Source of the DNA: a virus
Length of the DNA stretch: 64,000 nucleotides
Strand: one strand, 5' to 3'
Virus record (IMG/VR): IMGVR_UViG_3300024262_003767
The position numbers and the translations under genes are program-made. Shown here one piece after another: positions 5,658-41,106 of the stretch (position 1 is the first letter of the stretch; every line of letters begins with the position of its first letter). The notes beneath the pieces were generated by a model. It was given only the letters and a program-made list of their open reading frames with translations, had not been told where the DNA came from and made no database searches.

Positions 5658-6491
5658 TTATATAATTTTTAATTTTTTAAGTTTATCTTTATCATAAACT
5701 TCTATTTTTTTGTCTCTATATTGTTTTTTAAAAGCAAGATATTTATCTTTTGCATCATCTCTCCACCAGCCTTTAACTTCAACATATAAATCACAATCAA
5801 TAAGGTAAAAATCTGGTCTATATGTTCCTTCAGCATTATTATAATTGATAGGAAATGCTTCTGGTTCAAAGAACCATTCTATGTTATTTTTATCCAAATA
5901 AGTTGCATATTTTATTTCCCAAGAACTTCTCATCCACACAGAATCACCATTTTTACATTTATACCATTCACCTTTACCATGATAACATTTACCATAAAAA
6001 TTAGATTCCTTACCTCTTTTTACATTTTTACTTTTATTGATTAGCATTTTTTGATATCTTATGTTTGCTTCTATTTCGCCATATTTTTCTAACCAAACAC
6101 TAAATACTGAACGACCATACATTGGATTTTTATCACCAGACATTTTGACACTTATCTTTTTTTTAGTTTTGTCTGAATGATAATTACCTATGTTAGATTG
6201 ACTTATTTTTTTCTTTACCTCGTCTGTTCTATGCTTACCTTTAAAATGATGTGTATTATTTTTGTGCCATTCGATAAGTTTTTCAATCTTAACATCTTTA
6301 TTTGTATTCGCATTCACTTTATTAGAACACGATAAGCATAGATCATTTTTAACTGCATATCTATATTTTTTTTCTACTTCAGCATCACAATCTTTACATT
6401 TCCAAATTACAGTCTTTTCGCTACTTGGTTTCAAATCATTTGAATAATACCCAAACATATCCTTTGTTTTTTGTTCTAAAATAATACCCAT
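5658..6491 (-). CDS. Homing-endonuclease-like protein: Zn ribbon, NUMOD3 repeats, and a PD-(D/E)xK-like C-terminus
   Basis: WKCKDCDAE..CLSCSNK; NUMOD3-like KGKHRTDEVKKKISQSNIG and HSDKTKKKISVKMSGDKNPMYG; C-terminal YRPDFYLIDCDLYVEVKGWW. Confidence 0.6.
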   Translation of the reverse strand: MGIILEQKTKDMFGYYSNDLKPSSEKTVIWKCKDCDAEVEKKYRYAVKNDLCLSCSNKVNANTNKDVKIEKLIEWHKNNTHHFKGKHRTDEVKKKISQSNIGNYHSDKTKKKISVKMSGDKNPMYGRSVFSVWLEKYGEIEANIRYQKMLINKSKNVKRGKESNFYGKCYHGKGEWYKCKNGDSVWMRSSWEIKYATYLDKNNIEWFFEPEAFPINYNNAEGTYRPDFYLIDCDLYVEVKGWWRDDAKDKYLAFKKQYRDKKIEVYDKDKLKKLKII

Positions 6492-6554: not shown

Positions 6555-7016
6555 TTATATTATATATTTCCAAAATTCTTCAGGTAAATGAATATTTGTT
6601 AAAAACAAAACATTTTTAAATAATGGTGCAATGTCTGATGCTGCATAACCTGCTAACCCGCAACCTATTGGAGTAACTAAAAATATTTGTTCCTTATGTT
6701 TACAAGCATATTCAATAAAATTACCAACATACTTTTGGATTTCGATTACTGATAATGTTTTAATATTTTTATCTTTTGTTGGTATTGCATATGTTTGACC
6801 CTGAATTCCTTCACCTTGACCATAAATTGCGCCCCATTTAATTGCTTGTTTTGCTGCCCCTTTACCATGTCTTCCCGATTTGTTAGATCCAAAAATAAAC
6901 ACTTCATTGTCTTTTAATTTAGTAATTTTTTCTGGTGTTACTCTTTTTTCTTTATTAATATATTTACTATCACTAAAGTAAGAACCTCTCATTGCTTCTG
7001 ATCTTCCATCTGACAT
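6555..7016 (-). CDS. Glycine-rich Rossmann-like protein (SLOG/LOG/DprA-like?), function unknown
   Basis: FIFGSNKSGRHGKGAAKQAIKWGAIYGQGEGIQGQTYAIPTKD and TPIGCGLAGY glycine-rich loops; no confident family match. Confidence 0.25.
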   Translation of the reverse strand: MSDGRSEAMRGSYFSDSKYINKEKRVTPEKITKLKDNEVFIFGSNKSGRHGKGAAKQAIKWGAIYGQGEGIQGQTYAIPTKDKNIKTLSVIEIQKYVGNFIEYACKHKEQIFLVTPIGCGLAGYAASDIAPLFKNVLFLTNIHLPEEFWKYII

Positions 7017-7838: not shown

Positions 7839-8660
7839 TTAAGAAATGTTTTCAAGTTTTAATGCTCTGATTTGTTTTTTAGAAAAAATATTAGTTTTTG
7901 ACTTCTTTATTAAATGTGAAAATATTTTATTTTGTATTAATTTTTTCTTTACGGAAAAATCCGCATTTACTATTTTTTCTTCAAATTCAATTAAACATTC
8001 AGGCTCACGACCATCACCTAAATAAACTTTATCTCCTACTGTGTGAAACCAAAACCATTCTATTTTAATGTCATTTTCTTTAAACAATTTATCTACTTCT
8101 GAACTTAAATAATAATAAAAATATGTTAATAATTCAGTTAAAAATTCAGTTTCAGAAAATCCATCATTACTATTTAAATAATAATACCAAAAATTACTAG
8201 GTTCAACACCTAACTCAAGACAAAGATTATCAATTTTATCAATATTTTTGTTGGTTTTATTAAAAACATAGTCATTAAACAAACTTTTAAATGATTTAGT
8301 ATCTCCATTACCTTTATCACAATTACATTTTGAACACATTGTCTGATAATTGGTAGAAGTGTTTTTACCACCTTTAGATTTTGGTATGATGTGATCTTTC
8401 GTCATTAAAATTTCATCACCGTTTTCATTTACACCATACATATTGATGTGATATTTTTCAATTTCGGGTAAATGCTTCTCAATTGCTAAAAAAATTCCTT
8501 CAAGTCCACATTCAACACAGAATCTATTTTCTTGAAATAATTTGTATCGTTGTGAGGTTATCTTAACAGTAACCCCGTTAATTGTTCGGTATCTATTTGG
8601 TCCTACACTATCCTTTAGTTTTTTTAAATAACTTATATCTAATTTACTATGTCTTATCAT
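7839..8660 (-). CDS. HNH endonuclease
   Basis: HIIPKSKGGKNTSTNYQTMCSKCNCDKGNG HNH motif with Cys ligands. Confidence 0.75.
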   Translation of the reverse strand: MIRHSKLDISYLKKLKDSVGPNRYRTINGVTVKITSQRYKLFQENRFCVECGLEGIFLAIEKHLPEIEKYHINMYGVNENGDEILMTKDHIIPKSKGGKNTSTNYQTMCSKCNCDKGNGDTKSFKSLFNDYVFNKTNKNIDKIDNLCLELGVEPSNFWYYYLNSNDGFSETEFLTELLTYFYYYLSSEVDKLFKENDIKIEWFWFHTVGDKVYLGDGREPECLIEFEEKIVNADFSVKKKLIQNKIFSHLIKKSKTNIFSKKQIRALKLENIS

Positions 8661-8675
8661 CTTTTTATTTAAAAA

Positions 8676-9188
8676 TTATTTCAGGTAAATAGGATCAACG
8701 TGATCAACTAACCATACACCATTTTCTGATTGATAAAATTTAATTTTATCAACAATCATTGGATAAGTATCAATTTTGAAGATATATGGAGTATCATTTT
8801 TACAATATCTATTTGCAACATCTAAAGCAGTATCATAATCAGCACTTAGATGTACATGATTTCTTTTCATTTTAGAAAGTCCATTTTTTCTAATTGATTT
8901 AACATTTCTAGATGCTGTGCCGTGATATAAAAATTTTGGTGGCATCTTTGATTTCAATTCAACATCAACTTTTAAAGAATGTCCTTGATTTGCTCTAATT
9001 TTAGTTTCATCTTCATTAAAACTAAATCTTTTCTTATCATTATTATCTACAATCCATTGTAAATCTTCAAATGATATATTAACTTTATTCAATAAATCAT
9101 CAACATCAACCCAACCATTTTTATCCATAGACAAATCTTCTGGGTTATGTCTTAATAAATAACTTATTTGTATTCCTTTATTTTTCAT
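8676..9188 (-). CDS. kptA: RNA 2'-phosphotransferase Tpt1/KptA
   Basis: LSYLLRHNPEDL...NGWVDVDDLL, RANQGHS, HGTASRNVKSIRKNGLSKMKRNHVHL, matching Tpt1 family conserved blocks. Confidence 0.8.
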   Translation of the reverse strand: MKNKGIQISYLLRHNPEDLSMDKNGWVDVDDLLNKVNISFEDLQWIVDNNDKKRFSFNEDETKIRANQGHSLKVDVELKSKMPPKFLYHGTASRNVKSIRKNGLSKMKRNHVHLSADYDTALDVANRYCKNDTPYIFKIDTYPMIVDKIKFYQSENGVWLVDHVDPIYLK

Positions 9189-10275: not shown

Positions 10276-10515
10276 ATGAAAACAATGAAAACTATGCTAA
10301 TAATTTTAGCAATCCTAATGTTAGGAACAACACTTGGAACATCAACACCAAAAGTAAATGAATCTATTTTTGATTTTCCTGAAGAAGAATATATTGATGA
10401 TATTCCTTTTGATACAGATAAGGTAATTAACCAGGACACTTTTAAAATGGAAGAAGAAGGTTATATTGATGATATTCCATTTAATACAGAAAAAGTTGTA
10501 GAAGAATTATCATAA
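10276..10515 (+). CDS. Secreted small protein with a tandem acidic repeat (start re-assigned to the internal ATG)
   Basis: Signal-peptide-like MKTMKTMLIILAILMLGTTLG; repeats EEEYIDDIPFDTDKV / EEGYIDDIPFNTEKV. Confidence 0.4.
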   Translation: MKTMKTMLIILAILMLGTTLGTSTPKVNESIFDFPEEEYIDDIPFDTDKVINQDTFKMEEEGYIDDIPFNTEKVVEELS

Positions 10516-11070
10516 TTCCTCTACAACTATATTTGTCTTATTGTGTTCGTGATCTGAATAAATATATTTACTTCCAAATAATGGCACTTCTTTCAAATTA
10601 TCTTTTACATACTTACCCCCCATTCCTTTCTTAACATAAGCAATTGTCATGTGTGCATGATAATCTGGATGATTATTTGTGTATTCAAATCTAAAGCACA
10701 TAGTCTTATTAAGTTCTCTTAACTTATCTGAGTGAATATCAAATTTAACAACATCATATTCATCTTGTTCAAATATTGTTATATCACCTCTCATAATATC
10801 ATCTATATCTTCCAATTTAGGTAAATATGTTTTGATATCTTTTGCTATACCATCATAGTGATGAAATCCATATAAAATTGTACAATGTGCCTCATCTTCA
10901 TATCCATAATCATTTGTATCATCATCATCTTGTGATGTGTAAATATCTTCTTCTGGTATCATTCTTCTAATAAATTCGATCCAATTACTAAAAGAAAAAT
11001 ATAACATCAGACAACCTAATTTTGGTTTATCATCTTCCATATAGTTATCAAATTTTAGTATTTCAGCCAT
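10510..11070 (-). CDS. 2H phosphoesterase superfamily protein (LigT/CPDase/Acb1-like); start re-assigned to MAEILKF
   Basis: Two H-x-T-x motifs (AHCTILYG and AHMTIAYV) about 65 aa apart. Confidence 0.65.
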   Translation of the reverse strand: MAEILKFDNYMEDDKPKLGCLMLYFSFSNWIEFIRRMIPEEDIYTSQDDDDTNDYGYEDEAHCTILYGFHHYDGIAKDIKTYLPKLEDIDDIMRGDITIFEQDEYDVVKFDIHSDKLRELNKTMCFRFEYTNNHPDYHAHMTIAYVKKGMGGKYVKDNLKEVPLFGSKYIYSDHEHNKTNIVVEEL

Positions 11071-11120
11071 AATTTTAATGCTTTTTCTTTTATATATAAA
11101 TAAAAATATTTTTTGTTTAA

Positions 11121-11684
11121 ATGACTGAAAATTTAATAATTGTTGATGTACAACCAACATATAACAAATTTATAGATTTTGATATTGGTGAATTTGTTAG
11201 TTGGATAAATAACTCATCTTTTGATGAGGTTTTTTGTTTATATAATGGTCCTGAATTAGGTTATGAAGATGATGAATGGAGAATATCAAATTGGTATTAT
11301 GATTGGGGATTAGATAGGGATATAAGTTTTAGATTTTTTGAAAAATCTTATGGTTGGTTTCGTGATTTTATGGAAGATATGGATGATGATAATATAATTT
11401 CTATTGGTAAATATATGATAGAACACGACATATGGGATTCGAGATATTTTAAAAAGAAAGATATAAAAATTTTAAAAGATAGAGGAATAAGTACAAGGTA
11501 TTTAGGTAAAGAAAGTAGAGTAATGTATATACCTGAATTAAAAGATTACTTATCAAATAATATATATACTAACGAAGAAATTATTATTTGTGGTGGTGGT
11601 GTCGATGAATGTTACAAAGAAGTTAATATGTTATTGGAAATGATGGGATATAAATTTAAAGAAAAAATAAAATTTGTCTATTAA
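11121..11684 (+). CDS. Isochorismatase-like hydrolase (weak)
   Basis: N-terminal IIVDVQPTY and C-terminal IIICGGGVDECYKEV...GYKF resemble isochorismatase-family motifs. Confidence 0.3.
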   Translation: MTENLIIVDVQPTYNKFIDFDIGEFVSWINNSSFDEVFCLYNGPELGYEDDEWRISNWYYDWGLDRDISFRFFEKSYGWFRDFMEDMDDDNIISIGKYMIEHDIWDSRYFKKKDIKILKDRGISTRYLGKESRVMYIPELKDYLSNNIYTNEEIIICGGGVDECYKEVNMLLEMMGYKFKEKIKFVY

Positions 11685-13767: not shown

Positions 13768-14487
13768 TTAATCTTTATCCAACATAAATAAAGCCAAATC
13801 ATATTTTATTGGATCTTGGCTATCCATCTTTTTCAAATTATTAGTTAGTTCAATAACTGATTTCCAATCGTTTTGATTTCTGGTAAGTAATCCAAATTCT
13901 CTTGACATGTTTCCAACATGAACATCAAGAGGTATGTATAAATTGGACTTATCTATATTTTTCCATAATCCAAAATCTACATTATCATCTCTAACCATCC
14001 ATCTTAAAAACATATTTAATCTTTTTGCCGCTGAATTGTTTTCTACGTTGGAAAGGTGTTTTTCACTTCGTTGTTCATGTTCAAGAGAGAAAAAAATTTT
14101 CCAAAATCTAATTAAACTATTTTTTATATCATTCGTGAAAAATGTTTCCAATCCACTATAATTCAAATAAATATATCTTAGAGATTTCATATAATATATC
14201 ATATCAATATCCTTAATTGTTCTATGTTTAAATCCTTTAAGATTATTAAAATCTCCATATAAAATATAATTGTGAGGTTCATTATTCATTAATTCCATTA
14301 ATGAGTTTGACTTATTTATGATAATATCTCTCCTACCAAATGATATTATAGAAGTTAAAAATGCTGAGATTTCTATATCATAGAAACATTCAAATCTATG
14401 TGGAATTGATATTGGGTCATTTTCTATGAATAATTTATTATTATTAATTTTATAACTTTCTTCAAGTTGCTCTTTTATGTCTTTCAT
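13768..14487 (-). CDS. DUF2400/TIGR02757-like hypothetical protein
   Basis: NDPISIPHRFECFYDIEISAFLTSIISFGRRDII block reminiscent of that family. Confidence 0.3.
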   Translation of the reverse strand: MKDIKEQLEESYKINNNKLFIENDPISIPHRFECFYDIEISAFLTSIISFGRRDIIINKSNSLMELMNNEPHNYILYGDFNNLKGFKHRTIKDIDMIYYMKSLRYIYLNYSGLETFFTNDIKNSLIRFWKIFFSLEHEQRSEKHLSNVENNSAAKRLNMFLRWMVRDDNVDFGLWKNIDKSNLYIPLDVHVGNMSREFGLLTRNQNDWKSVIELTNNLKKMDSQDPIKYDLALFMLDKD

Positions 14488-14500
14488 TCTGTATTTCCAT

Positions 14501-15514
14501 TTATAAATTTTTTAAATTATATTTTAAATACCAATCTATAAATTTCTTTATTCCAATTTTGTATGATGTTGAAGGTTTAAAATCTATTGCTTCTTCCAGT
14601 AATGTGGTGTCTGCACCAGCATATCGAATATTTGTTATGTTGTTTCCAACAAAATCTTTTTCTGACTCTTTATTTAAATTTTTTTCAATCTCTTTAATAA
14701 AATCCATAATATTAATTGGTTCAGAATTACCAATATTATAAATTTTACATAAACCTATACTATTATCCTTCATTAATAAATAAATGCTTTTTACAACATC
14801 ATCAATATAAGTAAAATCTCTATAAATTTTACCATCATTATAAATTGTTATTGGTTTATTATTTATTATTTTTTTAGTAAAAATATAAGCGGCACTATCT
14901 GGTCTACCCCAAGGACCATAAACACTAAATAATCTCATACCTATTGTTTTAATGTTATGTATATGGCTATATGTGTGAGCCATTAATTCGTTAGATTTTT
15001 TAGTTGATGCACACATAGATATTGGTAAATTGGTGTTGTCTGTTTCTTTTAATAATATTTTACTTCTATCTGCTGTTAATCCATATACTGAAGATGCGCT
15101 TGCATACATTATTTTATCTACACCATAATCTTTTGATATTTCTAAAACACTATTAAACCCATGAATATTAATATTAATAAATTTGCTTGGATATACTTCA
15201 CTTAATTTTATTCCCGTAAGAGCAGCAAGATGTATAACAATTTTTACATGAAATTCTGAAAATATTTCTCTTAACCTTTTTGTATCGTTAATTTCTACAT
15301 ACGAAAAATCAAAATTTGAATATTTTTTACTTGTTACTGCTCTACCAATTTCTATTGTATCTATTCCTAATTCTTTAAGTCTATCTAATTTAATAGTATT
15401 ACTATAACCTATTTCTTCAAGAAAATCAACGCCAATAACATCTTCACCTTGTTCAATTAAATATTTTGCCAAATTAAACCCTACAAATCCAGCAACACCA
15501 GTAATTAGTATCAT
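14501..15514 (-). CDS. NAD-dependent nucleotide-sugar epimerase/dehydratase (UDP-glucuronate 4-epimerase-like); start re-assigned to MILITG
   Basis: ILITGVAGFVGFNLAKYL Rossmann motif; YSASKKSNELMAHTYSH (YxxxK); the first 28 aa of the track ORF is an AT-rich leader. Confidence 0.8.
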   Translation of the reverse strand: MILITGVAGFVGFNLAKYLIEQGEDVIGVDFLEEIGYSNTIKLDRLKELGIDTIEIGRAVTSKKYSNFDFSYVEINDTKRLREIFSEFHVKIVIHLAALTGIKLSEVYPSKFININIHGFNSVLEISKDYGVDKIMYASASSVYGLTADRSKILLKETDNTNLPISMCASTKKSNELMAHTYSHIHNIKTIGMRLFSVYGPWGRPDSAAYIFTKKIINNKPITIYNDGKIYRDFTYIDDVVKSIYLLMKDNSIGLCKIYNIGNSEPINIMDFIKEIEKNLNKESEKDFVGNNITNIRYAGADTTLLEEAIDFKPSTSYKIGIKKFIDWYLKYNLKNL

Positions 15515-15604
15515 AATTTTTTGATGTTTTATTTTTATATATTGATTTTTTATAAATAAAAAATAATTTTTAATATATAGATAGAGAAAAAATAACAATT
15601 TCTA

Positions 15605-17500: not shown

Positions 17501-18367
17501 ATGACGAAAGTAGATTACAAAACGAATTATATTGAACCTCAAGATTTTAACCTCTTAATTTCAAAATTAAGAGGATTTTTTATGGAAAATGGTTTCCTTG
17601 AGACATTTCCACAACCTAAATTAACAATACTTGCAGCGTGTGAAGACCCAAAAACTGTTAGAAGTTTTGAATTTGGTGGTGAAAAATTTCCACTACCCCA
17701 AACAAATCAGATGAACTTGGAAGAAGAACTTATGGTAGACTCAACAATAGATGGACTTTTTTGCTTAACAGCATCATATAGAGATGAACCAAACCCTATT
17801 GAAGGTCGCCACATGAAATCATTTCCAATGTTTGAAGCAGAACATAAAGGGGATTTTTCAAATCTAATACAAACAATAAGTGAGTGTTGTGTGTATTTAG
17901 GTTTAGTCGAAAAGGTTGCCGATATCCCAATATTCACATATGATGAACTTTGTGAACATTATAAAGTTGAAGATTTAACTTCTACTGAAGAAACATTGAT
18001 GTGTAAAGAATATGGTGATGTTGTCGCTATTACTATGTTTCCTGATAGGACAGATCCATTTTTCAACATGCGTGTTGATGGTTGTAACTTAAAAGGTGAA
18101 AAATTGTCCAACAAAGTAGATTTTATTGTTTGTGGACAGGAAACATTTGGTTGTGCTGAAAGAGAGATAGACATAAACTTAATGAGGAATAACTTCCACA
18201 CAATTAGTAATGGCGGGTATTCTGGACTATTATTTGAAAAATTTGGTAAGGAAAGAGTTGAAAAGGAATTGGAAGACTTTTTGAAATTGCCAATGATTGA
18301 AAGGTGGGGATTTGGTTGTGGTTTGACTAGATTATCAAGAGCAATGAAAAAGAAAGGATTAATTTAA
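17501..18367 (+). CDS. Class II aminoacyl-tRNA synthetase catalytic-core paralogue (EpmA/PoxA- or AsnA-like), no anticodon-binding domain
   Basis: Aligns block by block with E. coli EpmA: LLISKLRGFFMENGFLETFPQPKLT (motif 1 region), YRDEPNPIEGRHMKSFPMFEAE (motif 2, fRxE...H.pEFTMLE), RWGFGCGLTRLSRAM (motif 3, G.G.G.DR). Confidence 0.65.
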   Translation: MTKVDYKTNYIEPQDFNLLISKLRGFFMENGFLETFPQPKLTILAACEDPKTVRSFEFGGEKFPLPQTNQMNLEEELMVDSTIDGLFCLTASYRDEPNPIEGRHMKSFPMFEAEHKGDFSNLIQTISECCVYLGLVEKVADIPIFTYDELCEHYKVEDLTSTEETLMCKEYGDVVAITMFPDRTDPFFNMRVDGCNLKGEKLSNKVDFIVCGQETFGCAEREIDINLMRNNFHTISNGGYSGLLFEKFGKERVEKELEDFLKLPMIERWGFGCGLTRLSRAMKKKGLI

Positions 18368-19362
18368 TTAATCCTTTCTTTTTTTAGTAAAATATAATTT
18401 TTACTGATGGAATTATTTATTATTCCTTCATAACTTATTCTATTTGAACCTATCAAATTTAATTTGATATTAAGTTCATTAAAATATTTTCTCATTTCAT
18501 TTCTACCTTGAAATTCTTCAATTTTATCATCTGGACATTTTATTGTATATAACATCAATTTTCTATGTGACATTTGTGATGATTTATTTGTTCTTTTATT
18601 TACACTCCAACTCATATTTCGATAATCATTAGATTTATTATATAGATTATATCCTTTAGATCCATTTTTATATAATATTGCTGCTGGGCTTATTTTGTGT
18701 TTACCTGTTAATTTTTTTTCTTCATTCAATTCTCTAAAATACCCATGTACATTTTTTGAACCACTCATTTTTATTATATCTCCTTGTGGTGTCTTTATTT
18801 CATAAATTACTGATAGTGTTTTTTTTATTTTGTCAATAGTAATGCTAGTTTTATTTTTTTTGTAATTGGCGTTTTTGTGTGTCTCATAATACCTTTTTAA
18901 AGAGTCTCCAATTTTTTTCAATTTAGTTGCACTTCGTTTACTTTCTTGAAATTTTTTTGATATTTTTAACGATGCTGATATATTCTTTTTATGTTTATCT
19001 GTAAAAATTACACCACTTTCACCTTCACCACCATCACTTAAATTTATTAATGATCCTAATTTTAAATCTTTCCTTCCTATCTTTTTTATTGTAAGTTTTT
19101 CTAAATTAAATGATATATTTTCCTTTAAATTTTCATACAATTTAATAATTATTGGTTCTACCCCACTCTCTCTAATTTTTTTAATTTTATAGTACCGTAT
19201 TTTACTTTTTTTTATAACACTTTCATATAAGTGTACTTTAAATCTATCACCCTTACCTTTACCGACATAAAATGGTTCATGATCAAAAATTAAATCATCA
19301 AAAATATATTTACCAGGTTTTCTTGGATCTAAATAAACATAAACATAAAATTCATCACACAT
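18364..19362 (-). CDS. GIY-YIG homing endonuclease
   Basis: N-terminal YVYVYLDPRKPG...FYVGKGKGDR (GIY...YIG) with catalytic R and later E/N. Confidence 0.8.
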   Translation of the reverse strand: MCDEFYVYVYLDPRKPGKYIFDDLIFDHEPFYVGKGKGDRFKVHLYESVIKKSKIRYYKIKKIRESGVEPIIIKLYENLKENISFNLEKLTIKKIGRKDLKLGSLINLSDGGEGESGVIFTDKHKKNISASLKISKKFQESKRSATKLKKIGDSLKRYYETHKNANYKKNKTSITIDKIKKTLSVIYEIKTPQGDIIKMSGSKNVHGYFRELNEEKKLTGKHKISPAAILYKNGSKGYNLYNKSNDYRNMSWSVNKRTNKSSQMSHRKLMLYTIKCPDDKIEEFQGRNEMRKYFNELNIKLNLIGSNRISYEGIINNSISKNYILLKKERIN

Positions 19363-20790: not shown

Positions 20791-21897
20791 CTATTTACCA
20801 AATCTACTTTTTGTTGAATTGTAAATTTGTAAACTCTCATCTGATGTTAAATTTCTATCATATATCATCAATTTACCAATAGAACCATTGCCGAAAGTAA
20901 AACTTCCATATTGGTTGAATTGTATCTGAGTCCATGATGATAATGCAACATTTTTAAATTCTAACATATGCCATTCACCATCTCGGATATAATCATATAT
21001 GTTTGGTGTATCAACCGTGTCCATATAAAAATCAGGAGTACCACAATTACCATAATATTCTTTGTTAGATGAACTATATGCACCAAGGTAAAATGCTGTC
21101 GTTTGTGCACCTAAAAATAATGCCTGTGTGTCTGTTGTTTTTATCCAAAATATAACCGTACAAGTATTTGAGTTTGTTATTGTGTCTGTACAGGTTATAC
21201 CACCATCAGTTAAATTAAATATTTCTTCAAAACTGTCATGAACTATACCAGAACCGTCAAGAGAGAAAGATAAGTTTCTATTCACATCATACCAAGTAGT
21301 GTTGGTTCGTTGAGGTCCAGTAAAATTTGTCATATAAGATTTCTGTTCTATTTGTGGCGCATAAAAAGCATATTTATTTCCAGTTGAACCACCATAAGAA
21401 CTAATATACATTGAAGTCACATCTGTAGCAGGAGTTGTAAAAGTTTTAGATATTCTTATCCATCTATTTGAGGGCCAGGTGTTCCACGATGAACTTCCTT
21501 TATATTCTAAATATCCTTGATTTGTGTTGTGTGGTTGAGGTCTACAATACGGTGAACTTCCACCAATTATAGGTTCATTTTGCCAGAACCAAACAGATGC
21601 GGTATATTCTGTAGATGTTGTGACTGCGGCATTTCCACATCCCATATGGAGACTACCTGTTGTTGTAACTAGTTCAGATAATACACTATAACCTGGAAAA
21701 GGAGGATCAATAGTCAAATCGTTTGAACTCCAAGTAGCAGCACCAGAATTAACCCAACTAGATCTCCAACTTAATGAATTGTCAGATTGATATGATAGAT
21801 TAGTAGTAGATTCACCAGGAAATGAATTCAAATCTTTGGCATCTAAATTTATTAAAAGTCCATCTGTTACTATTTTTGGTCCTATTGATACTCCCAT
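20791..21897 (-). CDS. LamG/concanavalin-A-like lectin-fold protein (virion or fibre candidate)
   Basis: Ser/Thr/Gly/Trp-rich beta-sandwich composition; shares N-terminus MGVSIGPKIVTDGLLINLDA and C-terminus YNSTKSRFGK with the upstream paralogue. Confidence 0.45.
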   Translation of the reverse strand: MGVSIGPKIVTDGLLINLDAKDLNSFPGESTTNLSYQSDNSLSWRSSWVNSGAATWSSNDLTIDPPFPGYSVLSELVTTTGSLHMGCGNAAVTTSTEYTASVWFWQNEPIIGGSSPYCRPQPHNTNQGYLEYKGSSSWNTWPSNRWIRISKTFTTPATDVTSMYISSYGGSTGNKYAFYAPQIEQKSYMTNFTGPQRTNTTWYDVNRNLSFSLDGSGIVHDSFEEIFNLTDGGITCTDTITNSNTCTVIFWIKTTDTQALFLGAQTTAFYLGAYSSSNKEYYGNCGTPDFYMDTVDTPNIYDYIRDGEWHMLEFKNVALSSWTQIQFNQYGSFTFGNGSIGKLMIYDRNLTSDESLQIYNSTKSRFGK

Positions 21898-23243
21898 TAT
21901 TTACCAAATTTACTTTTTGTTGAATTATAATTTTGAATGGCTTCTGACTCTAAAATTGCTCTATTGTAATATTTAAAAATTGATATATATCCGTCAAAAT
22001 AAGATCCATATGATGCGTGAGCAGTTCCATACCCTTTACCAATACTACTAATAGTCACATTATTGGTTGTGAATGATGGAGAATACACTCCGATATATTC
22101 CCCATCAAAATAAAGAGTTTGTGCTCCATTAGTTGATGTTATTATCACATGGTGCCAGTTTAAATCGGCAACAACACCAGTATTAAAAACTCCCCAATAT
22201 TCTTCATTAATATCTCTTTCACCTCTAAATTGAAATGTATTTGAAACTATTGTATAATCAAGAAGTTGCATATAACCAGCAACACCATTCAATAATCGTA
22301 ATGCGTTATTAGTATTTGTTACATCTTGTGAAGTTAATGTGTTTCGTTTAACCCAAAATTCAACAGTACAAGAATTGAGATCTATTATTGTTGTGTTTAT
22401 ATCAACTTTATTGCCGCTTGTTACACCACCACTAAAATATATTTGTTTGTTACTATCATAGGACATATTTGTAATGTCTCCATTATTGTTACCTATTAAA
22501 TCCACCCAACCTTTTGTTGGTGATACACCCAATAAATCTCTAATATAAGGTTCTGAACCATCACACTTATCCATTCTTGGGTCATAAAATTGTAATTGAG
22601 TTGTACCATCAGTACAATAGTAATGATAAGTTCTATGATATGATGTTGTTGTTGATGGGTTCCACTTACAATCAACACCTATATTACAACCATTAATATC
22701 ACCAATTCTACCACTAGTTGAATACACACCCGTATCATTGTGTCTAGTTGTACCGTCATATGTATGGTAAAAACAATGTCCAACATATAAATACCATTGA
22801 TCTTTTATTAAAGATGATGTTGCTGAACAATTCCAATATGGATTACCACCTTCAGAACCATCTAATTTTACAACAGTAGGACCTAATCCAAAATAAAAAG
22901 TGCCACCACCAGAATCAGAAATTCGTTTTACCCAAATGGAAAATCTATAAGTATAATTAACATCTACACTATAAGATGATGTATTCCAACCACCATCTGC
23001 GTCACTAATTGTGTTTCCACTTGTCTTCCATACAACTGCCGATTCCCCCATAGGGTTTATATCTACAATTCTACTATTCTCACTAGTTGCACCATTTTGA
23101 CTAAATCCAGTCACACCACCTGTTCCAACAGTCCAATTATCCATATTAATATCAGAATGTCTAACATAAGATCTACTATTTGTTGCATCTAAACATAAAA
23201 CTAAACCGTCTGTTACTATTTTAGGACCAACAGTTACACCCAT
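21897..23243 (-). CDS. LamG/concanavalin-A-like lectin-fold protein (paralogue)
   Basis: MGVTVGPKIVTDGLVLCLDA ... YNSTKSKFGK; stop overlaps the start of the downstream paralogue. Confidence 0.45.
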   Translation of the reverse strand: MGVTVGPKIVTDGLVLCLDATNSRSYVRHSDINMDNWTVGTGGVTGFSQNGATSENSRIVDINPMGESAVVWKTSGNTISDADGGWNTSSYSVDVNYTYRFSIWVKRISDSGGGTFYFGLGPTVVKLDGSEGGNPYWNCSATSSLIKDQWYLYVGHCFYHTYDGTTRHNDTGVYSTSGRIGDINGCNIGVDCKWNPSTTTSYHRTYHYYCTDGTTQLQFYDPRMDKCDGSEPYIRDLLGVSPTKGWVDLIGNNNGDITNMSYDSNKQIYFSGGVTSGNKVDINTTIIDLNSCTVEFWVKRNTLTSQDVTNTNNALRLLNGVAGYMQLLDYTIVSNTFQFRGERDINEEYWGVFNTGVVADLNWHHVIITSTNGAQTLYFDGEYIGVYSPSFTTNNVTISSIGKGYGTAHASYGSYFDGYISIFKYYNRAILESEAIQNYNSTKSKFGK

Positions 23244-27352: not shown

Positions 27353-28216
27353 TTAATTTAATTCACCTTCCCAAACAATTTTATATTCATATTTACCTGG
27401 TAGTAGTATAATTTCTCTTTGATTTGTATGGTAATATTGTGTTGGTAATTTCTGTACGTCAACTAGTACATCTTTAGGTTGTACTTCCATCATAATAACA
27501 AAAGGTGGTGATGATGGTTGTTCATCCACAAATCTTCTAGCCACTAATATATTTGTAGTCCAAGATGTCGACATATTGAAATCGGATATAACTTTTTCAC
27601 CAACTTTGTATGGTGGGGTTTTTTTTGAAAAATGTTTTATTTGAACTTCTTCAATACCTTTATAAATCTTTAAAGGTTTATCTGGTTTAAAAGGTTTTAA
27701 TTCGTCTATAATATCTTGTGTTAATTTTGATAATAACAAAGAGCCAGAACCTATATATGAATATAACCAATCATCAGTTTTTTCAGATAATTCAACATTT
27801 ATCCTTTCAGGTGTATGTTTATCATATTTAGTAAATCCTCCAATGTAACGAAAAGATATCACATCTCCATTTTTAATTCTTGCTAACCATTCACCTGTTA
27901 TTGAATGTTTATAAAAATAACCAGAATAATCATCAACATCAACTTCTTCATCTTCACTAAATCCAAAAAAATCTACAATTTGTTTATATAGAGGTTTTTT
28001 TGTTTTAATTTGATAGATATATTCACTATTTATATCAGATGCGTCTGCTCTATTTGTTAAATAGATTCTTTTTAAATGATTTAGATTACTAAAATCTATA
28101 TCTTCTAATTTTAATGGTTCATCAGAATATAAATATAAATTTCCATTATATGTTTTTTGATCGTAATCTACTTCATTATAATCTACAAGTTCAAATAATT
28201 TGAATTTAGTTATCAT
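27353..28216 (-). CDS. Hypothetical protein with a possible C-terminal ADP-ribosyltransferase-like domain
   Basis: FNMSTSWTT (STS) followed about 55 aa later by NQREIILLPG (Q-x-E); upstream IYKG in the position of the YRG Arg; overlaps the CCA-enzyme gene by 11 nt. Confidence 0.3.
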   Translation of the reverse strand: MITKFKLFELVDYNEVDYDQKTYNGNLYLYSDEPLKLEDIDFSNLNHLKRIYLTNRADASDINSEYIYQIKTKKPLYKQIVDFFGFSEDEEVDVDDYSGYFYKHSITGEWLARIKNGDVISFRYIGGFTKYDKHTPERINVELSEKTDDWLYSYIGSGSLLLSKLTQDIIDELKPFKPDKPLKIYKGIEEVQIKHFSKKTPPYKVGEKVISDFNMSTSWTTNILVARRFVDEQPSSPPFVIMMEVQPKDVLVDVQKLPTQYYHTNQREIILLPGKYEYKIVWEGELN

Positions 28217-29465
28217 TCATAAGATATTCATTTTTGAAACGCACAATCTCTCGTCTTTTCTTTTCTATTTCAATTTCAATTCCTTTGAAACCTTCAGCAG
28301 CTAAATCATTACCATTAACCACAAATCCATCATTACAATAATCAACAAATGGTTTATAGAATTCTTCACCCAAAAACTCATAAATTAAATCATCATCAAT
28401 ATGATATTGATTTTTCATTTTAGCCAAACCGTAAACATTTGAAACGTCAATGTTTTTAAATGATTTCCAATGTAAATCTAATTCCTTCTCAAGTTTGAGC
28501 AAAAATTCAATCTGGTTCACTAACTTGGAACTAAATTTCAATTCACTAATCATATATTTTCTCAATTTACGAATATCATTATCACGAAGTAAATGTGCAA
28601 ATAATATTGCGGAAATAGGTTTTGGTGTAAATCCATCGGGAGATATTTTCAATTTGGGAAACATTTGTTCCCACATATCATATTCAGTTAATAGTCTGAT
28701 ATAATTTTCTAATATTTTGTTTCCGCCTTTTTCTGCGTGTTCAATTACCTTATTCCATTCTTCATGTATTCTTTCTTGTGATACATCTTCTTTGGTACTT
28801 ATACCACGTAGTCTGTTATCACTTTTAATGGCTCTTGATGTCTCAGGTGATATGATACCACCTTTTCTACCTTGGGCTCTTGCAGCGAATCTAAATACTC
28901 TTAAAATTCTTAATCTATCTTCTTTAAATCTCTCAGCAGGATCACCAACAGCACGTATAACATTATTTTCAATATCTTTAACTCCACCAACCAAATCTAC
29001 AATTTCTTTTTTATTTATATCATAGAAAAGAGCATTGATAGTTAAATCTCTACGTTTAACATCATCTTCGATTGTAATATGGTTTCCAATTTCTACTTTA
29101 TCATCATCACCTTTTGTATCTCTACCTCCAGAAATATCTTTTCTAAAAGTTGCTAATTCGTGTCCGAGTGGTTCATCTTCAGTATAAATTCTAAGTACGC
29201 CAAAATTTTTACCTTGTTCATCAGAAACATTCCAACCTTTCAAAATTCTTTTACTTTCTTCTGGTAGAGCATTTGTGACTAAATCAAAATCATGTGGTAT
29301 CTTTTTTTGCAAAAAATCACGAACCGCTCCACCAACAACATAGATATCTTTACCAGCATTATTGAAGGCTCTTGATATTTCTTTAATGTCATAAGGAATA
29401 GGCATCTCAACAGAGATAGTATTTTCAGTTATAAATTCTAAATATTTTTTTAATTTTTCTACCAT
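28206..29465 (-). CDS. cca: tRNA nucleotidyltransferase (class II CCA-adding enzyme / polyA-polymerase head domain)
   Basis: VVGGAVRDFLQKKIPHDFDLV (GGxVRD...DxD) and RRDLTINALFYD motifs. Confidence 0.85.
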   Translation of the reverse strand: MVEKLKKYLEFITENTISVEMPIPYDIKEISRAFNNAGKDIYVVGGAVRDFLQKKIPHDFDLVTNALPEESKRILKGWNVSDEQGKNFGVLRIYTEDEPLGHELATFRKDISGGRDTKGDDDKVEIGNHITIEDDVKRRDLTINALFYDINKKEIVDLVGGVKDIENNVIRAVGDPAERFKEDRLRILRVFRFAARAQGRKGGIISPETSRAIKSDNRLRGISTKEDVSQERIHEEWNKVIEHAEKGGNKILENYIRLLTEYDMWEQMFPKLKISPDGFTPKPISAILFAHLLRDNDIRKLRKYMISELKFSSKLVNQIEFLLKLEKELDLHWKSFKNIDVSNVYGLAKMKNQYHIDDDLIYEFLGEEFYKPFVDYCNDGFVVNGNDLAAEGFKGIEIEIEKKRREIVRFKNEYLMNDN

Positions 29466-31773: not shown

Positions 31774-33954
31774 TTAATAAAATTGTTTAAATATTTTTGA
31801 GATTTTTTCTTTTGTTATTGGTTTTACAATTTGAAAATCTATATTCTTCTCTACCATATCTGTGGTAGATATTGTAATTATAGTTAACTCTTCATCTATT
31901 TGTTTTAATTTTTCTATGAAATCTAGTATATTAATATTTGATAAACTCATATCTATAAATATTGCATCAATATCACCTAATTTTTCTTCAAGTACATCAA
32001 GTGTTTCCTTTGATGATAGTGTCCATTTAATTTTAACATTCATAGATTTTAACATTATACCTAATAATGAATAGTTTTCAGGTATATCTTCTAATACTAT
32101 CACTTTAATATTAGAAAAATCATACACAATTTTATTAACTTGTTTTGTTTGAATATTTTGAACTTCTTGTAATGGAAGAGTAAAAAAGAATGTGCTTCCT
32201 TCTTTTTGAGTTGAATCTACCCATATATTTCCACCAAGTATATTAACTATACTTTTTGCGATAGATAATCCCAATCCTGTACCTTGGTATTGTTTTTTTG
32301 ATGATGCATCAACTTGCATAAATTTATCAAAAACTATTTCTAATTTATCTTCTGGAATACCAATACCAGTATCTTCAACAAAGAATGTTATAATATTGTC
32401 TTTTATTCTTGTACCAATTCTTATATGTCCACTTTCAGTAAATTTAATTGCATTACTAATCAAATTATATAATACCTGTTTTAATCTAAGAAAATCAGAC
32501 ACTATTATTTCATTATCTTCTCGTTTTTCGAAAGTTAATTTTACCGAATCTATATTCTTTCTAATATTTATATCTATAAAAATTTCTTCTAATTCTTCAA
32601 ATAAATCATTGATTGGGAATCGTTCATATAATAGTTCTAAATTTAATTCACCTGCTTCAATTTTAGCATAATCTAATATGTTATTTAATAATTCTTCTAA
32701 ATGTTTTGCATTAGCATTTATAGTTTTAAGAAATTTTTTATTATTGGTAGTATCAAACTTATCATCTAATAATATATCTGAAAAGCCTATAATCGAATTC
32801 ATTGGCGTTCTTATTTCGTGACTCATATTTGCCAAAAATAGTGACTTTAAAAGATCACTTTTTTCTGCTTCTATTTTTGATTTTTCTAATTCTATTTTAA
32901 TATTTTCTTGTTCTGTAATATCTTTACAATGAATTGCAATATACTCCGTTGAGCCATTATCATTTAAAATGGGATATATGTAATTTTCAAAATATTTATT
33001 ATTTATAACATCAATAAAATGTACTGGTTTGCCTGTAAATATTGCTTCAAGTGTTCTTTTTCTTTTGGGTTCTACACTCTCTTTAGGTAAAATCTGTGAT
33101 ATGTTCACTCCTACTAATTCTTCTCTTGTTTTATTAAAATATTTACAACCTCTATCATTTATTGCTAATAACTCACCTACTTTATTTGTTAAATAAGATG
33201 CACTTAATGTTGAATTTATAATATCTAAGTGTTGTCTCTCCTTTATTTTCATATCAGTAATATCTTGAAATATGGTAACAAAACGATGTGAGTTTTGTTT
33301 ATATGCATCAATTAAAAACCATTTCTGAAAAATATATGAATATTTTTCAAAATGTAAAGTCTTATTATCAGTAAATATTTGAGAATATATCCTTATCCAT
33401 TCACTCGAATCTTTATCTAATATTTCAGTTATATTTTTTCCAATAATTTCTGAATCTAAACCTGTGGTTTCGGTGAACGCTTTATTTATTCTAACAAATT
33501 TATAATCAATAGGTTTGCCACTATTATCAAATATCATTTCATGTAGAGAAAATGCTCGACTCATATTATCAATAATCTTTTCAAGTTCTTCACTTTTAAA
33601 AATATAATCTTTACTTATTTGAGATAAATGTTTTTCATCTTGATATACAACATGTACAAAATTTTCCTCACCTCGATAGATATAATTATATCTCCAACGA
33701 TTAAATTTATCGTCTTTATACTCTTTTAATTCGTGTGTCATACATTCTCCACTATCATACACTTTTAATATTTTATCATAAATACCAAAGTCGATTACTT
33801 TAGAAAAAACATCAACCAATTTTTTATCAATAACATCATATTCAATTCTTTCTACCGTATAAAAATTTTCTGATACTTCGTGAAAATATATATCTTCATC
33901 GATAATTTTATATGTGATAGAAACAAAATCAAAAATTTTTTCAAAATTTTTCAT
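31774..33954 (-). CDS. Cytoplasmic hybrid sensor histidine kinase (PAS domains, HisKA, HATPase_c, C-terminal receiver)
   Basis: H-box MSHEIRTPMNSIIGFSDIL; N, G1/G2 boxes (NLISNAIKFT, DTGIGI, GTGLGLSIAKSIV); receiver with VIVLEDIPEN and DAIFIDMSL; no TM segment. Confidence 0.9.
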   Translation of the reverse strand: MKNFEKIFDFVSITYKIIDEDIYFHEVSENFYTVERIEYDVIDKKLVDVFSKVIDFGIYDKILKVYDSGECMTHELKEYKDDKFNRWRYNYIYRGEENFVHVVYQDEKHLSQISKDYIFKSEELEKIIDNMSRAFSLHEMIFDNSGKPIDYKFVRINKAFTETTGLDSEIIGKNITEILDKDSSEWIRIYSQIFTDNKTLHFEKYSYIFQKWFLIDAYKQNSHRFVTIFQDITDMKIKERQHLDIINSTLSASYLTNKVGELLAINDRGCKYFNKTREELVGVNISQILPKESVEPKRKRTLEAIFTGKPVHFIDVINNKYFENYIYPILNDNGSTEYIAIHCKDITEQENIKIELEKSKIEAEKSDLLKSLFLANMSHEIRTPMNSIIGFSDILLDDKFDTTNNKKFLKTINANAKHLEELLNNILDYAKIEAGELNLELLYERFPINDLFEELEEIFIDINIRKNIDSVKLTFEKREDNEIIVSDFLRLKQVLYNLISNAIKFTESGHIRIGTRIKDNIITFFVEDTGIGIPEDKLEIVFDKFMQVDASSKKQYQGTGLGLSIAKSIVNILGGNIWVDSTQKEGSTFFFTLPLQEVQNIQTKQVNKIVYDFSNIKVIVLEDIPENYSLLGIMLKSMNVKIKWTLSSKETLDVLEEKLGDIDAIFIDMSLSNINILDFIEKLKQIDEELTIITISTTDMVEKNIDFQIVKPITKEKISKIFKQFY

Positions 33955-38389: not shown

Positions 38390-39280
38390 TCAAAATATAA
38401 GGCTACTTTTCGTTTCCCAACGTGAATATAATTTTCCGTTCTCCCTCAATATCAAATATTTGTATGTATCTTTAACTTCTTCATTCATACAATCATCATC
38501 AACTACGACAGACATTTCATCAATATCGTAAATTGATGCACCAAAAGGAAGTTTACCTAAATATCTACCATTCTTTACAACATATTCAGAAATTTTATCA
38601 TAAAATATTGAAGATGCGTTTTCTTCAATCCATTTATCAATTTCATTGTTTGTTTCTGATTTGTAAAGTTTCCTAAATGTAATCTGATCTGCACCCATTT
38701 CTTTACATTTATTTAAAACTTCATCAACTGAATATTTATCATAATCATCAACAAGATTTAATGATAATCTAAGATTGAAATCATATTTTTTGATAAGAGA
38801 AATAATTTCATTCATATCAAATTTCAATTTATCTTTACATCCAATTATACTCATATTTTTTTCATTATCAAAAACATTAGATATTGAAAGTGAGATTGTT
38901 GTTACTCCAATATTCCTTAAAAATTTAAGGCTTATATCATCTAATAACACACCTGTACTTTGAATTTCAATACTTTTAAAAGGTGTAATCAATTTTGAAT
39001 TTGTCTCAGAAAAGAATTTCAAAAATGGAAAATTTTGTGTTGGTTCACCTGTACCTGTTAATATAACAACATTACAACCATTATCTCTTGCAAATTGTAA
39101 ACGATTAAAATAATCTTTATATTCAATTGTAGTAGTATCTACATCAACCCAAAATTTATCTTTCTTTTTTAAACAATTAGAAACTTTATCACTATAAGGA
39201 TTTGTGTGCGTCCTACTCACACAAAATTTTACACATTTGTTTTTTGTAGGGACAACAATCGATAAACTCTGTATATTCAT
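38390..39280 (-). CDS. Radical-SAM-like protein with an atypical Cys motif
   Basis: CVKFC (CxxxC, third Cys not in the canonical position) and VVILTGTGEPT glycine-rich SAM-motif-like block. Confidence 0.25.
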   Translation of the reverse strand: MNIQSLSIVVPTKNKCVKFCVSRTHTNPYSDKVSNCLKKKDKFWVDVDTTTIEYKDYFNRLQFARDNGCNVVILTGTGEPTQNFPFLKFFSETNSKLITPFKSIEIQSTGVLLDDISLKFLRNIGVTTISLSISNVFDNEKNMSIIGCKDKLKFDMNEIISLIKKYDFNLRLSLNLVDDYDKYSVDEVLNKCKEMGADQITFRKLYKSETNNEIDKWIEENASSIFYDKISEYVVKNGRYLGKLPFGASIYDIDEMSVVVDDDCMNEEVKDTYKYLILRENGKLYSRWETKSSLIF

Positions 39281-39975: not shown

Positions 39976-41106
39976 TTATTCCTCTTTTTCTTTAACTAAG
40001 TTAAGATATATCTTTCTATCATCTTTGATAACAGAAATAACCTTAACTTTTACTTGATCACCTTTCGTTAATTTGGCATTATTCTTCACAAGGTATGTGG
40101 TTTGTATTAACCCCATAGTTTCATAGTCAAGTGAAATTAATGCTCCAAAATTTTTCACATCAATTACTTTTCCTGATAATATTTTACCTACTTTAATTTT
40201 ATCCCAAAGAGACTCTTTTAAAGATTGTGTTAGTATAATCTTTTGACTTTTTGTGATTTCCTTAACATAAAAATCAATTGCCATACCAGGTAGGATTTGG
40301 TGCCATCTATCTTGCCACTCAGTATTTATGTTCATTTTATGAATCATACCTGTAAGACAATTATTGAATTGAACAAATACTCCAAATGGTGTTGTTCCAG
40401 TAACTTCGCCTGCATAAACGACATCATTTTTTAGTTTTTTGATCTCTTCTGGTATAAGTGTCTTAAGATATTTTCTTCGTGAAACAACATAAACCCCCTT
40501 TTCTTGTTGCAATGTCTCTAACATCACATTTAGAGTTTCACCAATAATTGATTCAGGATTTGCGAGTTTATTAACATCAGCTAATGTATTTGGCATAAAC
40601 GCATCGATAGTTACATTATCCATATAAATATCAAGCATATAGCCTGCTGGTATTAATTCCTTCACCTTAGCAACAAGTGATAATCTTTCTTCATAATAAG
40701 TTTTCAATTTATTATGAACATTCATTTTAATTAATTCTGTAATAGATCCTCTTATTAAGAATGGATCGTCTTGAATTGATGTTATTAGTACATCAATTTG
40801 TGAACCAGGCTCTAACCCTATCACTAATTTTCCTTTTGGTGTGTCAACATAAATGTAGTCTTTATACCCAAAATCAACAGTTATTTCTGTATCATCTATA
40901 GATACTATCACACCTTTGATTATTTCCCCTTCTCTTACTTCTCTTAAATCAAGAAAAGTTTTTTCCATCATACGATAAAGATTTTGATAATCTTCAGTAA
41001 GATTAGATAAATCACCTTTTACTTTGATTATTTCTCTATCATTAGTTAGAAACGGAAAAGGATCAGGAAGTGATCCTACATTTACGCCTTCGATTAATTT
41101 CGACAT
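39976..41106 (-). CDS. rpsA: Ribosomal protein S1-like (multi-S1-domain RNA-binding protein)
   Basis: Three to four S1 repeats: GEIIKGVIVSIDD, GEVTGTTPFGVFVQF, GKILSGKVIDVKNFGALISLD...KGDQVKVKVISV. Confidence 0.7.
   Translation of the reverse strand: MSKLIEGVNVGSLPDPFPFLTNDREIIKVKGDLSNLTEDYQNLYRMMEKTFLDLREVREGEIIKGVIVSIDDTEITVDFGYKDYIYVDTPKGKLVIGLEPGSQIDVLITSIQDDPFLIRGSITELIKMNVHNKLKTYYEERLSLVAKVKELIPAGYMLDIYMDNVTIDAFMPNTLADVNKLANPESIIGETLNVMLETLQQEKGVYVVSRRKYLKTLIPEEIKKLKNDVVYAGEVTGTTPFGVFVQFNNCLTGMIHKMNINTEWQDRWHQILPGMAIDFYVKEITKSQKIILTQSLKESLWDKIKVGKILSGKVIDVKNFGALISLDYETMGLIQTTYLVKNNAKLTKGDQVKVKVISVIKDDRKIYLNLVKEKEE

Follow-up and report, generated by a model that had tools for sequence, protein, structure and literature searches.

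The stretch of viral DNA analyzed here (the window; 64,000 nucleotides, from a contig of 70.3 kb) has a GC content of 24 to 32% throughout and resembles a segment of a large phage genome. Its assignment to phages rests on relatives (IMG/VR contigs and LR756501), as the window open reading frames (ORFs) scanned included no identifiable capsid or terminase gene. Asparagine makes up 7.2% of the encoded residues, with AAY codons at 710 of 9,929. Genes on the minus strand include those for Tpt1/KptA (8676-9188), a 2H/Acb1-like phosphoesterase (10510-11160), DUF2400 plus an epimerase (13768-15598), a PolyA_pol/CCA-adding-family nucleotidyltransferase (28206-29465), and an S1-domain protein (39976-41106). 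The window also encodes a hybrid histidine kinase, a thymidine kinase, NusG, ClpB, NAPRTase plus an isochorismatase-family protein, and two Laminin_G_3-type proteins. Part of this gene block is syntenic with a relative, L249, that has HPF, PDF, and Tpt1. The initial annotation had credited the virus with an unusually broad translation-modifying toolkit. This holds in part: the S1-domain protein, Tpt1, the CCA-adding-family nucleotidyltransferase, NusG, and the 2H phosphoesterase lie in the window, whereas HPF and PDF were seen in L249 only.

The gene under study (17501..18367, plus strand) encodes a 288-amino-acid (aa) protein, a class IIb aminoacyl-tRNA synthetase (aaRS)-like catalytic core that is AsnRS-like and has no anticodon-binding domain. 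It converges with a GIY-YIG homing-endonuclease-like gene (18364..19362, minus strand; PF22945, E = 1.2e-8). Both convergent stop codons are overlapped by a perfect 18-bp palindromic hairpin with A/T-run flanks (18346..18383; folding, terminator scan, and cmscan), which has a minimum free energy of -18.4 kcal/mol (z = -6.2) and was matched in stability by 0 of 200 shuffles. The hairpin is predicted to be a bidirectional intrinsic terminator, which would close the gene as a stand-alone unit with no RNA co-transcribed downstream. A meaning for the adjacency of the GIY-YIG gene, as implied by the title of the initial annotation, is not borne out by relatives. In three at 71 to 78% identity (P0003, P0015, and P0009), a peptidase M16, a metallophosphoesterase, or a small ORF lies downstream instead, no GIY-YIG gene is present at this position (loci L247/L248, L249, and L250), and no tRNA occurs within 10 kb on either side. 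Thus, the endonuclease appears to be an insertion peculiar to the window lineage and not a component of the system, and a functional partnership is ruled out by the lack of conserved adjacency. Genes of the HNH and NUMOD3/Endo-I types are also present in the window.

The protein matches the Pfam profile for class II aaRSs of the D/K/N type (PF00152; E = 4.3e-16; 59.3 bits against a cut-off of 25) from aa 19 to 282, corresponding to profile positions 28 to 292 of 308. As the match extends across nearly the whole 288 residues, the protein is essentially the catalytic core alone; its aa 19 aligns to AsnRS residue ~140 to 165, and the protein starts at the core. It belongs to subclass IIb. Motif 1, which we assign by the class II consensus, is NGFLETFPQPKL (aa 30-41; 17588..17623) with near-invariant E34 and Q38. 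An amino-acid pocket segment, P64-L-P-Q67-T68-N-Q70-M-N-L73-E74 (17690..17722), is delimited by HMMER alignments to AsnRS (3m4p and 2xti) and AspRS (9m5m), and alignments likewise place motif 2, S-Y-R94-D-E96-PNPIEG-R103-H104-...-F-E112-A-E114 (aa 92-114; 17774..17842). The block K205-V-D207-FIVC-G212-Q-E214-T215-F-G-C-A219-E-R221 (18113..18163), aligned to both AsnRS and AspRS, is predicted to hold the class IIb metal/ATP-binding acidic residues and the side-chain-binding Arg. Motif 3, R268-W-G270-F-G272-C-G274-L-T-R277-LSR (aa 268-280; 18302..18340), contains the ATP-binding Arg, and its G270-x-G272-x-G274-x-x-R277 pattern is intact. All of these features are on the plus strand. The initial description of a stand-alone class II core with motifs 1 to 3 and no anticodon-binding domain therefore stands.

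An alignment of 236 family sequences (104 tRNA-linked viral, 52 other viral, and 80 cellular), with an overall identity of 40 to 50%, has 78 positions that are at least 97% identical, all catalytic residues among them. Invariant or nearly so are R94, E96, G102, R103, H104, E112, E114, D207, E214, R221, and R277; the pocket residues Q67, T68, Q70, L73, and E74 are invariant. Loss of the ATP-binding Arg/His residues of motifs 2 and 3 had been named as the sign of a pseudo-enzyme. Since R94, R103, H104, and R277 are kept across the 236 sequences, and motif 3 is intact, the protein looks like an active enzyme, and a pseudo-enzyme is ruled out by this degree of conservation.

The residues expected to surround the amino-acid side chain resemble those of AsnRS rather than AspRS. 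In the HMMER alignments, the segment L65-P-Q-T-N-Q-M-N-L73-E74 pairs without gaps with AsnRS "LTQSSQLYLE" and F-E112-A-E114 with AsnRS "VEAE". The K205...R221 block has counterparts in AsnRS (VDLLMPGVGEIVGGSMR) and in AspRS (YDFFMRGEEILSGSQR); within it, K205-V-D207...G212-Q-E214-T-F-G-C-A-E-R221 pairs with AsnRS "VDLL..GVGEIVGGSMR". The Plasmodium vivax AspRS (9m5m), in contrast, reads "QSPQLYKQ" and "LDVE", with Lys and Asp where the window family has L73 and E112. Its K-Q corresponds to L73-E74 of the family, and its motif 2 ends in D-x-E, whereas the family and AsnRS have E-x-E. In AspRS, this Lys and this Asp bind the aspartate beta-carboxylate, and the replacement of both distinguishes AsnRS. 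By these signature residues, the side-chain pocket appears to be of the AsnRS type and set apart from AspRS, a distinction that does not separate AsnRS-like chemistry from that of archaeal AsnA (AS-AR).

By sequence and fold, AsnRSs are the closest relatives of the window protein, with archaeal AsnA, EpmA, AspRS, and LysRS lower. A profile of the family searched against PDB sequences returned AsnRS entries as its top seven matches (E = 1.4e-9 to 8.5e-7), followed by an AspRS (2.4e-5), archaeal AsnA 3p8t (1.3e-4), and LysRS (1.3e-3); EpmA was not among the matches at E <= 0.01. Identity is 25% for AsnRS, 17% for AS-AR, and 14% for GenX. Given that AsnRSs rank first against the PDB, we consider the family a distinct, deep branch of subclass IIb nearest to the archaeal/eukaryotic-type AsnRSs. 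No curated family claims the window protein. Its NCBIfam scores are 25.6 bits for non-discriminating AspRS (ND-AspRS), 24.8 for AsnRS, and 13.4 for archaeal AsnA, where cut-offs are 353 to 414. The AsnRS score comes from NF003037/TIGR00457 (equivalog cut-off, 414) and the AsnA score from NF005055 and siblings (389). EpmA/GenX (TIGR00462 and NF006828) is absent among its NCBIfam matches, and Pfam AsnA (Escherichia coli type) does not match it. When 60 family members were compared with NCBIfam, 50 matched ND-AspRS, 38 AsnRS, 30 EpmA, 16 archaeal AsnA, and 13 LysRS, with best E values of 2.7e-9 for ND-AspRS, 7e-7 for archaeal AsnA, and 9.6e-5 for EpmA; none of the 60 approached a cut-off. Neither the window nor the 735-kb megaphage described below yielded a further class IIb paralogue in a tblastn search, which has low sensitivity.

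The family is large and is not restricted to phages. A protein search with the window sequence returned 640 clusters, nearly all of ~260 to 310 aa (about 234 to 310 aa among the best matches listed), and identity falls to 50% within the top 120 of these clusters as listed. Relatives are encoded on at least 582 IMG/VR viral contigs. Among GenBank phages, a 735-kb megaphage (LR756501/LR756503) carries the gene at 66% identity to the window protein, as do the Prochlorococcus phages P-SSM2, P-SSM5, and P-SSM7 at 42% (over 98% of the length for P-SSM2 gp198), where it is annotated as "tRNA ligase"; the 484-kb LR756508 has it as well. In PHROG, the protein matches family 29758, which is listed as "unknown function" (E = 1.5e-68). 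In species-representative cellular genomes, at least 415 loci encode proteins 44 to 51% identical, which rules out a phage-restricted family. These carriers are mainly CPR/Patescibacteria, DPANN archaea, Chlamydiae, Coxiellaceae, Rickettsiales, and Dependentiae, and some of the loci are on contigs of 0.7 to 3.8 Mb. NCBI names the cellular proteins "amino acid--tRNA ligase-related protein" or "transposase", the latter evidently a misnomer. In cells, the gene occurs singly among housekeeping genes with no conserved neighbor, and tRNA-Asn was adjacent in 0 of 60 loci scanned. The tRNA-linked viral, other viral, and cellular groups of the 236-sequence alignment agree at all catalytic and pocket positions. 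Therefore, the whole family very probably shares one biochemical activity and varies in where the substrate is encoded. In a neighbor-joining tree of these sequences, the window protein falls within a purely viral clade of eight, together with the megaphage, L006, L008 to L011, and L007. Beside the active site, this clade has the substitutions N69 for G, A113 for F, Q213 for M, and C218 for S.

The central new finding is the association of the family with an unusual tRNA. In P-SSM7, P-SSM2, and P-SSM5, a tRNA of 86 to 88 nt with anticodon GUU lies 6 to 8 nt 3' of the gene. A downstream tRNA(GUU) of 77 to 100 nt on the same strand was found in 22 of the 80 best IMG/VR loci, at a distance of -9 to 373 nt (1052 nt in one case), and no other tRNA species was consistently placed among these 80. 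The association was also apparent from the opposite direction. When IMG/VR was scanned with a pattern describing the tRNA only (Leu-like D-arm, GUY anticodon, T-loop, and A72-G73), at least 120 stretches matched, and the family gene was immediately upstream on the same strand, mostly 10 to 40 nt off, in 103 of the 118 new loci listed. In at least 10 of the 15 loci in which no gene was seen, the contig extends <130 nt upstream of the tRNA, too little to show the gene; three others are of the GUC type. The linkage between gene and tRNA(GUU) in phages is thus tight and two-way, and in the tree the coupling occurs in three viral clades.

These partner tRNAs have U1-A72 (rarely A1-U72), discriminator G73, and often an encoded CCA; U1-A72 is present in 118 of 121 distinct tRNAs of this type. 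Their D-arm (GUGGCGAAAUUGGUAGACGC) is of the tRNA-Leu type, and a covariance model built from them scores genuine tRNA-Leu genes at 64 bits. The variable region ranges from 5 to 33 nt, that is, from short to a long helical arm, and compensatory changes at 23 of 26 pairs support a cloverleaf with an extra arm. Canonical tRNA-Asn has A37, and U37 occurs in 104 of the 121 (86%), a position imposed by none of the search patterns. BLAST against GenBank phages gave no informative matches for the partner tRNAs. The identity of tRNA-Asn lies in the anticodon plus G73, and bacterial GatCAB picks Asp-tRNA-Asn via U1-A72 (PMC9976931, PMC2330236). The partner is therefore a tRNA-Asn acceptor-end identity on a foreign body, as would be expected for the substrate of an enzyme unable to read anticodons. 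Two loci, L039 and L007, have partners that were missed by ARAGORN and found by the covariance model; these have a still longer arm on the same body, and their anticodon loops, CUGUCUC and CUGUCUA, specify GUC (Asp). A GUC-specific scan detected 46 such tRNAs in viral contigs, with the family gene adjacent only in L039 and L007. GUC partners are compatible with an anticodon-blind enzyme.

The window copy is an ordinary member of the family without this adjacent tRNA. No partner tRNA (U1-A72, G73, Leu-like D-arm, and GUU) follows the gene on its strand within ~400 nt. Neither ARAGORN nor Rfam at the gathering score detected any tRNA in the 64-kb window, Rfam at E <= 10 gave no credible tRNA near the gene between 15 and 21 kb, and the best score of the partner covariance model in the window was 11 bits with filters off; these searches thus give no support for a hidden or degenerate tRNA beside the gene. 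The whole 735-kb genome of LR756501 encodes 59 tRNAs, none of them of the partner type. Among them are three tRNA-Asn(GUU) and three tRNA-Asp(GUC), all ordinarily shaped, and one tRNA-Asn has U1-A72, G73, and CCA. A 111-nt covariance-model match in this genome was rejected as a partner because it is tRNA-Leu(CAG).

Our preferred reading, held tentatively and with slightly less than even confidence, is that the enzyme is an anticodon-independent ligase for tRNA-Asn-type acceptor ends that probably loads asparagine. The core-only class IIb enzyme would use ATP to activate an amino acid, in all likelihood asparagine in view of the AsnRS-type pocket, and transfer it to the 3' end of tRNA-Asn-type acceptors. 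Being unable to read the anticodon, it would recognize these through the acceptor end (U1-A72 plus discriminator G73). The position of the gene directly upstream of an odd tRNA-Asn in >100 marine phage contigs suggests that it probably charges that tRNA with the anticodon unread, so that in many phages the gene for the enzyme would be followed directly by that for its substrate, a dedicated tRNA(GUU). We infer a similar activity for the window copy because catalytic and pocket residues are identical across all groups; as the adjacent tRNA is absent in its clade, the substrate there may be ordinary phage-encoded or host tRNA-Asn.

The initial annotation listed AsnA-like amidation as a candidate, and this is still the main live rival, although an unlikely one. 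The protein would be an ammonia-dependent asparagine synthetase that, as in AS-AR, activates the aspartate beta-carboxylate and amidates it to free asparagine; with tRNA-Asn, it would form an "asparagine supply" module in phages with AT-rich, Asn-rich proteomes. AS-AR indeed has the same core-only architecture at about 290 aa. However, AsnRSs are nearer to the family than AS-AR is (E of 1e-9 versus 1e-4; identity of 25% versus 17%), the AsnA model gives 13 bits against a cut-off of 389, Pfam AsnA is unmatched, and the near-obligate, operon-like coupling to a structurally aberrant tRNA (103 of the 118 tRNA loci listed) is left unexplained. Many carrier lineages (Chlamydiae and Rickettsiales) probably use GatCAB and have no known AsnRS, so free asparagine would be useless for translation there. 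This would run against the rule that genomes with AsnA use AsnRS and not GatCAB (PMC2330236). The GatCAB route of these lineages would suit a minimal ND-AspRS, an enzyme that charges Asp and feeds GatCAB. Partners with either GUU or GUC keep that alternative alive, as tRNA-Asn and tRNA-Asp are exactly the substrates of an ND-AspRS; "aspartate--tRNA(Asn) ligase" is the top NCBIfam family across members (50 of 60; best E, 2.7e-9), and U1-A72, the bacterial GatCAB determinant (PMC9976931), is present in 118 of 121 partners. It is nonetheless improbable, as the pocket is a misfit, with invariant L73 and E112 (236 sequences) where the P. vivax AspRS has K and D.

The linkage to the tRNA could also reflect a non-canonical acceptor, such as an anticodon-loop nucleotide of GUN tRNAs (in the manner of GluQ-RS) or the supply of aminoacyl groups to a non-ribosomal process. 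There is precedent, as cited in PMC9437257 (Salazar 2004), for a truncated synthetase that modifies tRNA; G34-U35 is common to the GUU and GUC partners, and U37 in 86% of them argues that they are poor ordinary decoders. We rate this as very improbable, since the encoded CCA in many partners and the conserved G73 and U1-A72 point to chemistry at the 3' end, and no special tRNA lies near the cellular members. Least credible of all is the EpmA/EF-P lead of the initial annotation, in which a protein aminoacylase modifies EF-P or another protein. EpmA ranks under AsnRS and archaeal AsnA, GenX identity is only 14%, no EpmA was matched in the PDB at E <= 0.01, and the pocket signature is of the AsnRS type; Q70 and E112-x-E114 presumably differ from the residues of LysRS and EpmA. 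A search for EF-P or EpmB homologues, as had been proposed, found none among window ORFs of at least 150 aa, and the tRNA linkage would be unexplained. The family also occurs in DPANN archaea, which have aIF5A rather than bacterial EF-P.

The tRNA(GUU) linkage in phages and the wide cellular presence of the family go beyond what the initial annotation described. A further-reaching form of our preferred reading, which we regard as quite unlikely as a whole, is that the enzyme is a naturally occurring, anticodon-blind minimal synthetase. In marine phages, it and a purpose-built tRNA (tRNA-Asn acceptor identity and U37 on a Leu-like body, with a GUU or, in a few cases, GUC anticodon) would make up an orthogonal pair that is self-contained. 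Such a pair would do more than boost Asn decoding: it might let a phage recycle free asparagine in hosts that make Asn only on tRNA, permit escape from anticodon-loop nucleases or recoding of Asp/Asn codons, or serve as an aminoacyl donor in a non-ribosomal reaction. The enzyme would then also provide CPR, DPANN, and obligate intracellular bacteria with a route to Asn-tRNA that has gone unrecognized.

The interest lies at the level of the family, as the window copy is without the most intriguing feature, the adjacent tRNA. If our preferred reading is correct, a class IIb catalytic domain is able to work without anticodon reading, and genetic-code engineering may find a natural orthogonal pair in the ~270-aa enzyme and its one unusual tRNA. 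Carriers of the family number in the hundreds both among phages that infect globally abundant cyanobacteria and among CPR, DPANN, chlamydial, and rickettsial genomes; in the latter organisms, reconstructions of Asn-tRNA synthesis and amino-acid dependence could change. The family has been invisible to annotation under the names given above. If the protein is instead an asparagine synthetase, it would represent a widespread third AsnA type and a new phage auxiliary metabolic gene.

We found no published description of the family or of its pairing with a tRNA in the searchable literature, and we conclude that it is an uncharacterized class IIb aaRS paralogue. Of the complete genomes that carry the gene, the closest is the 735-kb phage of Al-Shayeb et al. 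(2020), who proposed that the aaRS and tRNA sets of huge phages charge the phage's own tRNA variants (PMC7162821). Those aaRSs are full-length and were found with TIGRFAM models, whereas the window family fails all such models. The nearest known system is AsnRS of the archaeal/eukaryotic type (Pyrococcus horikoshii 1x54, human NARS1, and Brugia malayi). Compared with it, the family lacks the entire N-terminal OB-fold anticodon-binding domain (288 aa versus about 430) and has invariant features of its own ("ILAACEDP", the motif 2 loop "YR-x-E-PNP-x-x-GRH", and "PF[FW]NM"); it scores 25 bits against a cut-off of 414, and tRNA charging by the family is putative. AS-AR (Pyrococcus abyssi 3p8t) is more distant (17% identity; profile E, 1.3e-4; 13 bits against 389), and we know of no linkage of AS-AR to any tRNA gene, in contrast to the tight tRNA(GUU) linkage that the window family shows in phages. 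EpmA/GenX/PoxA, the EF-P beta-lysine ligase (3a5y), is not the nearest relative (14% identity); it is derived from LysRS, and its pocket presumably differs from that of the window family. GluQ-RS (YadB), which is a truncated GluRS of class I and glutamylates Q34 of tRNA-Asp, is similar in being a synthetase without an anticodon-binding domain that acts on a tRNA with a GUN anticodon, but it is of another aaRS class and fold, and the likeness is an analogy only. AsnA, EpmA, and HisZ are the textbook examples of core-only aaRS paralogues that were recruited away from tRNA. If the preferred reading holds, this core-only family has apparently done the opposite, having either kept its tRNA or returned to it.

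The window carries, all on the minus strand, a Tpt1/KptA RNA 2'-phosphotransferase (8676-9188; E = 6.6e-47), a 2H-phosphoesterase/Acb1-like protein (10510-11160), and a PolyA_pol head-domain protein of the CCA-adding-enzyme family (28206-29465). Together, these genes look like a capability for tRNA repair or maturation, and this RNA-end-processing set possibly counters host anticodon nucleases. Two radical-SAM-like proteins, at 38390-39280 (minus strand) and 45492-46370 (plus strand), score 27.1 and 25.9 bits, respectively, versus a Pfam gathering score of 29.5, and neither has a lysine-aminomutase C-terminal domain. They are probably what the initial annotation listed as "RlmN-like" genes. 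For the core-enzyme family itself, 13 of the 60 members scanned (those of alignment A2) weakly match the TrmL tRNA 2'-O-methyltransferase model TIGR00185 (best E = 1.4e-4), matches that are possibly spurious.

The remaining cargo is diverse. A complete hybrid sensor histidine kinase (31774-33954, minus strand) combines PAS, HisKA, HATPase_c, and receiver domains; such a gene is unusual for a virus, and it is kept in two relatives (L249 and L250). Also on the minus strand, an NAPRTase gene (50077-51375) adjoins an isochorismatase-family (nicotinamidase-like) gene (51377-52078) in what looks like an NAD salvage pair, which may be linked to countering NAD-depleting defense systems. Adjoining paralogues at 20791-21897 and 21897-23243 (both minus strand), the second with a Laminin_G_3/ConA-like domain (E = 3.4e-12), have the N terminus MGV[ST][IV]GPKIVTDGL in common and may be receptor-binding or fiber proteins. 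Mobile endonucleases appear to have colonized this genome heavily: the 64 kb contain at least three, and perhaps four, genes of the homing-endonuclease type, namely NUMOD3 plus Endo I (5658-6491), HNH (7839-8660), GIY-YIG (18364-19362), and, by a weak match, NUMOD3 plus DUF7487 (61267-62148), all on the minus strand.

Unusual tRNAs also occur in other viruses. About 44 viral contigs (L204 to L246) encode a tRNA of class II shape that carries a GUC anticodon (e.g., L230, 6787-6898, and L217, 966-1065). Its loop is YUGUCUC (U37), it has U1-A72 and G73, and its extra arm is very long, with a variable region of up to about 42 nt; no aaRS-like gene was found near these tRNAs in any of these contigs. 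In the 735-kb megaphage LR756501, two neighboring CUA-anticodon tRNAs of the amber-suppressor type (L265, a piece of that genome, 43186-43339; ~690.6 kb in LR756501) are labeled "tRNA-Pyl" by ARAGORN, and they suggest TAG recoding in this phage.

The Prochlorococcus phage P-SSM2 record AY939844.2 gives 164094-164179, a stretch within the coding sequence PSSM2_205, as the position of its tRNA-Asn feature PSSM2_199. According to both ARAGORN and Rfam, the tRNA lies ~2,010 nt upstream, at 162082-162169 (6810-6897 of our P-SSM2 locus, L001), between PSSM2_198 and PSSM2_200, the position that the locus tag itself fits. Coordinates in AY939844.2 and GU071092.1 differ by 2,007 nt, which agrees with this offset, so the feature seems to bear the coordinates of the latter record.
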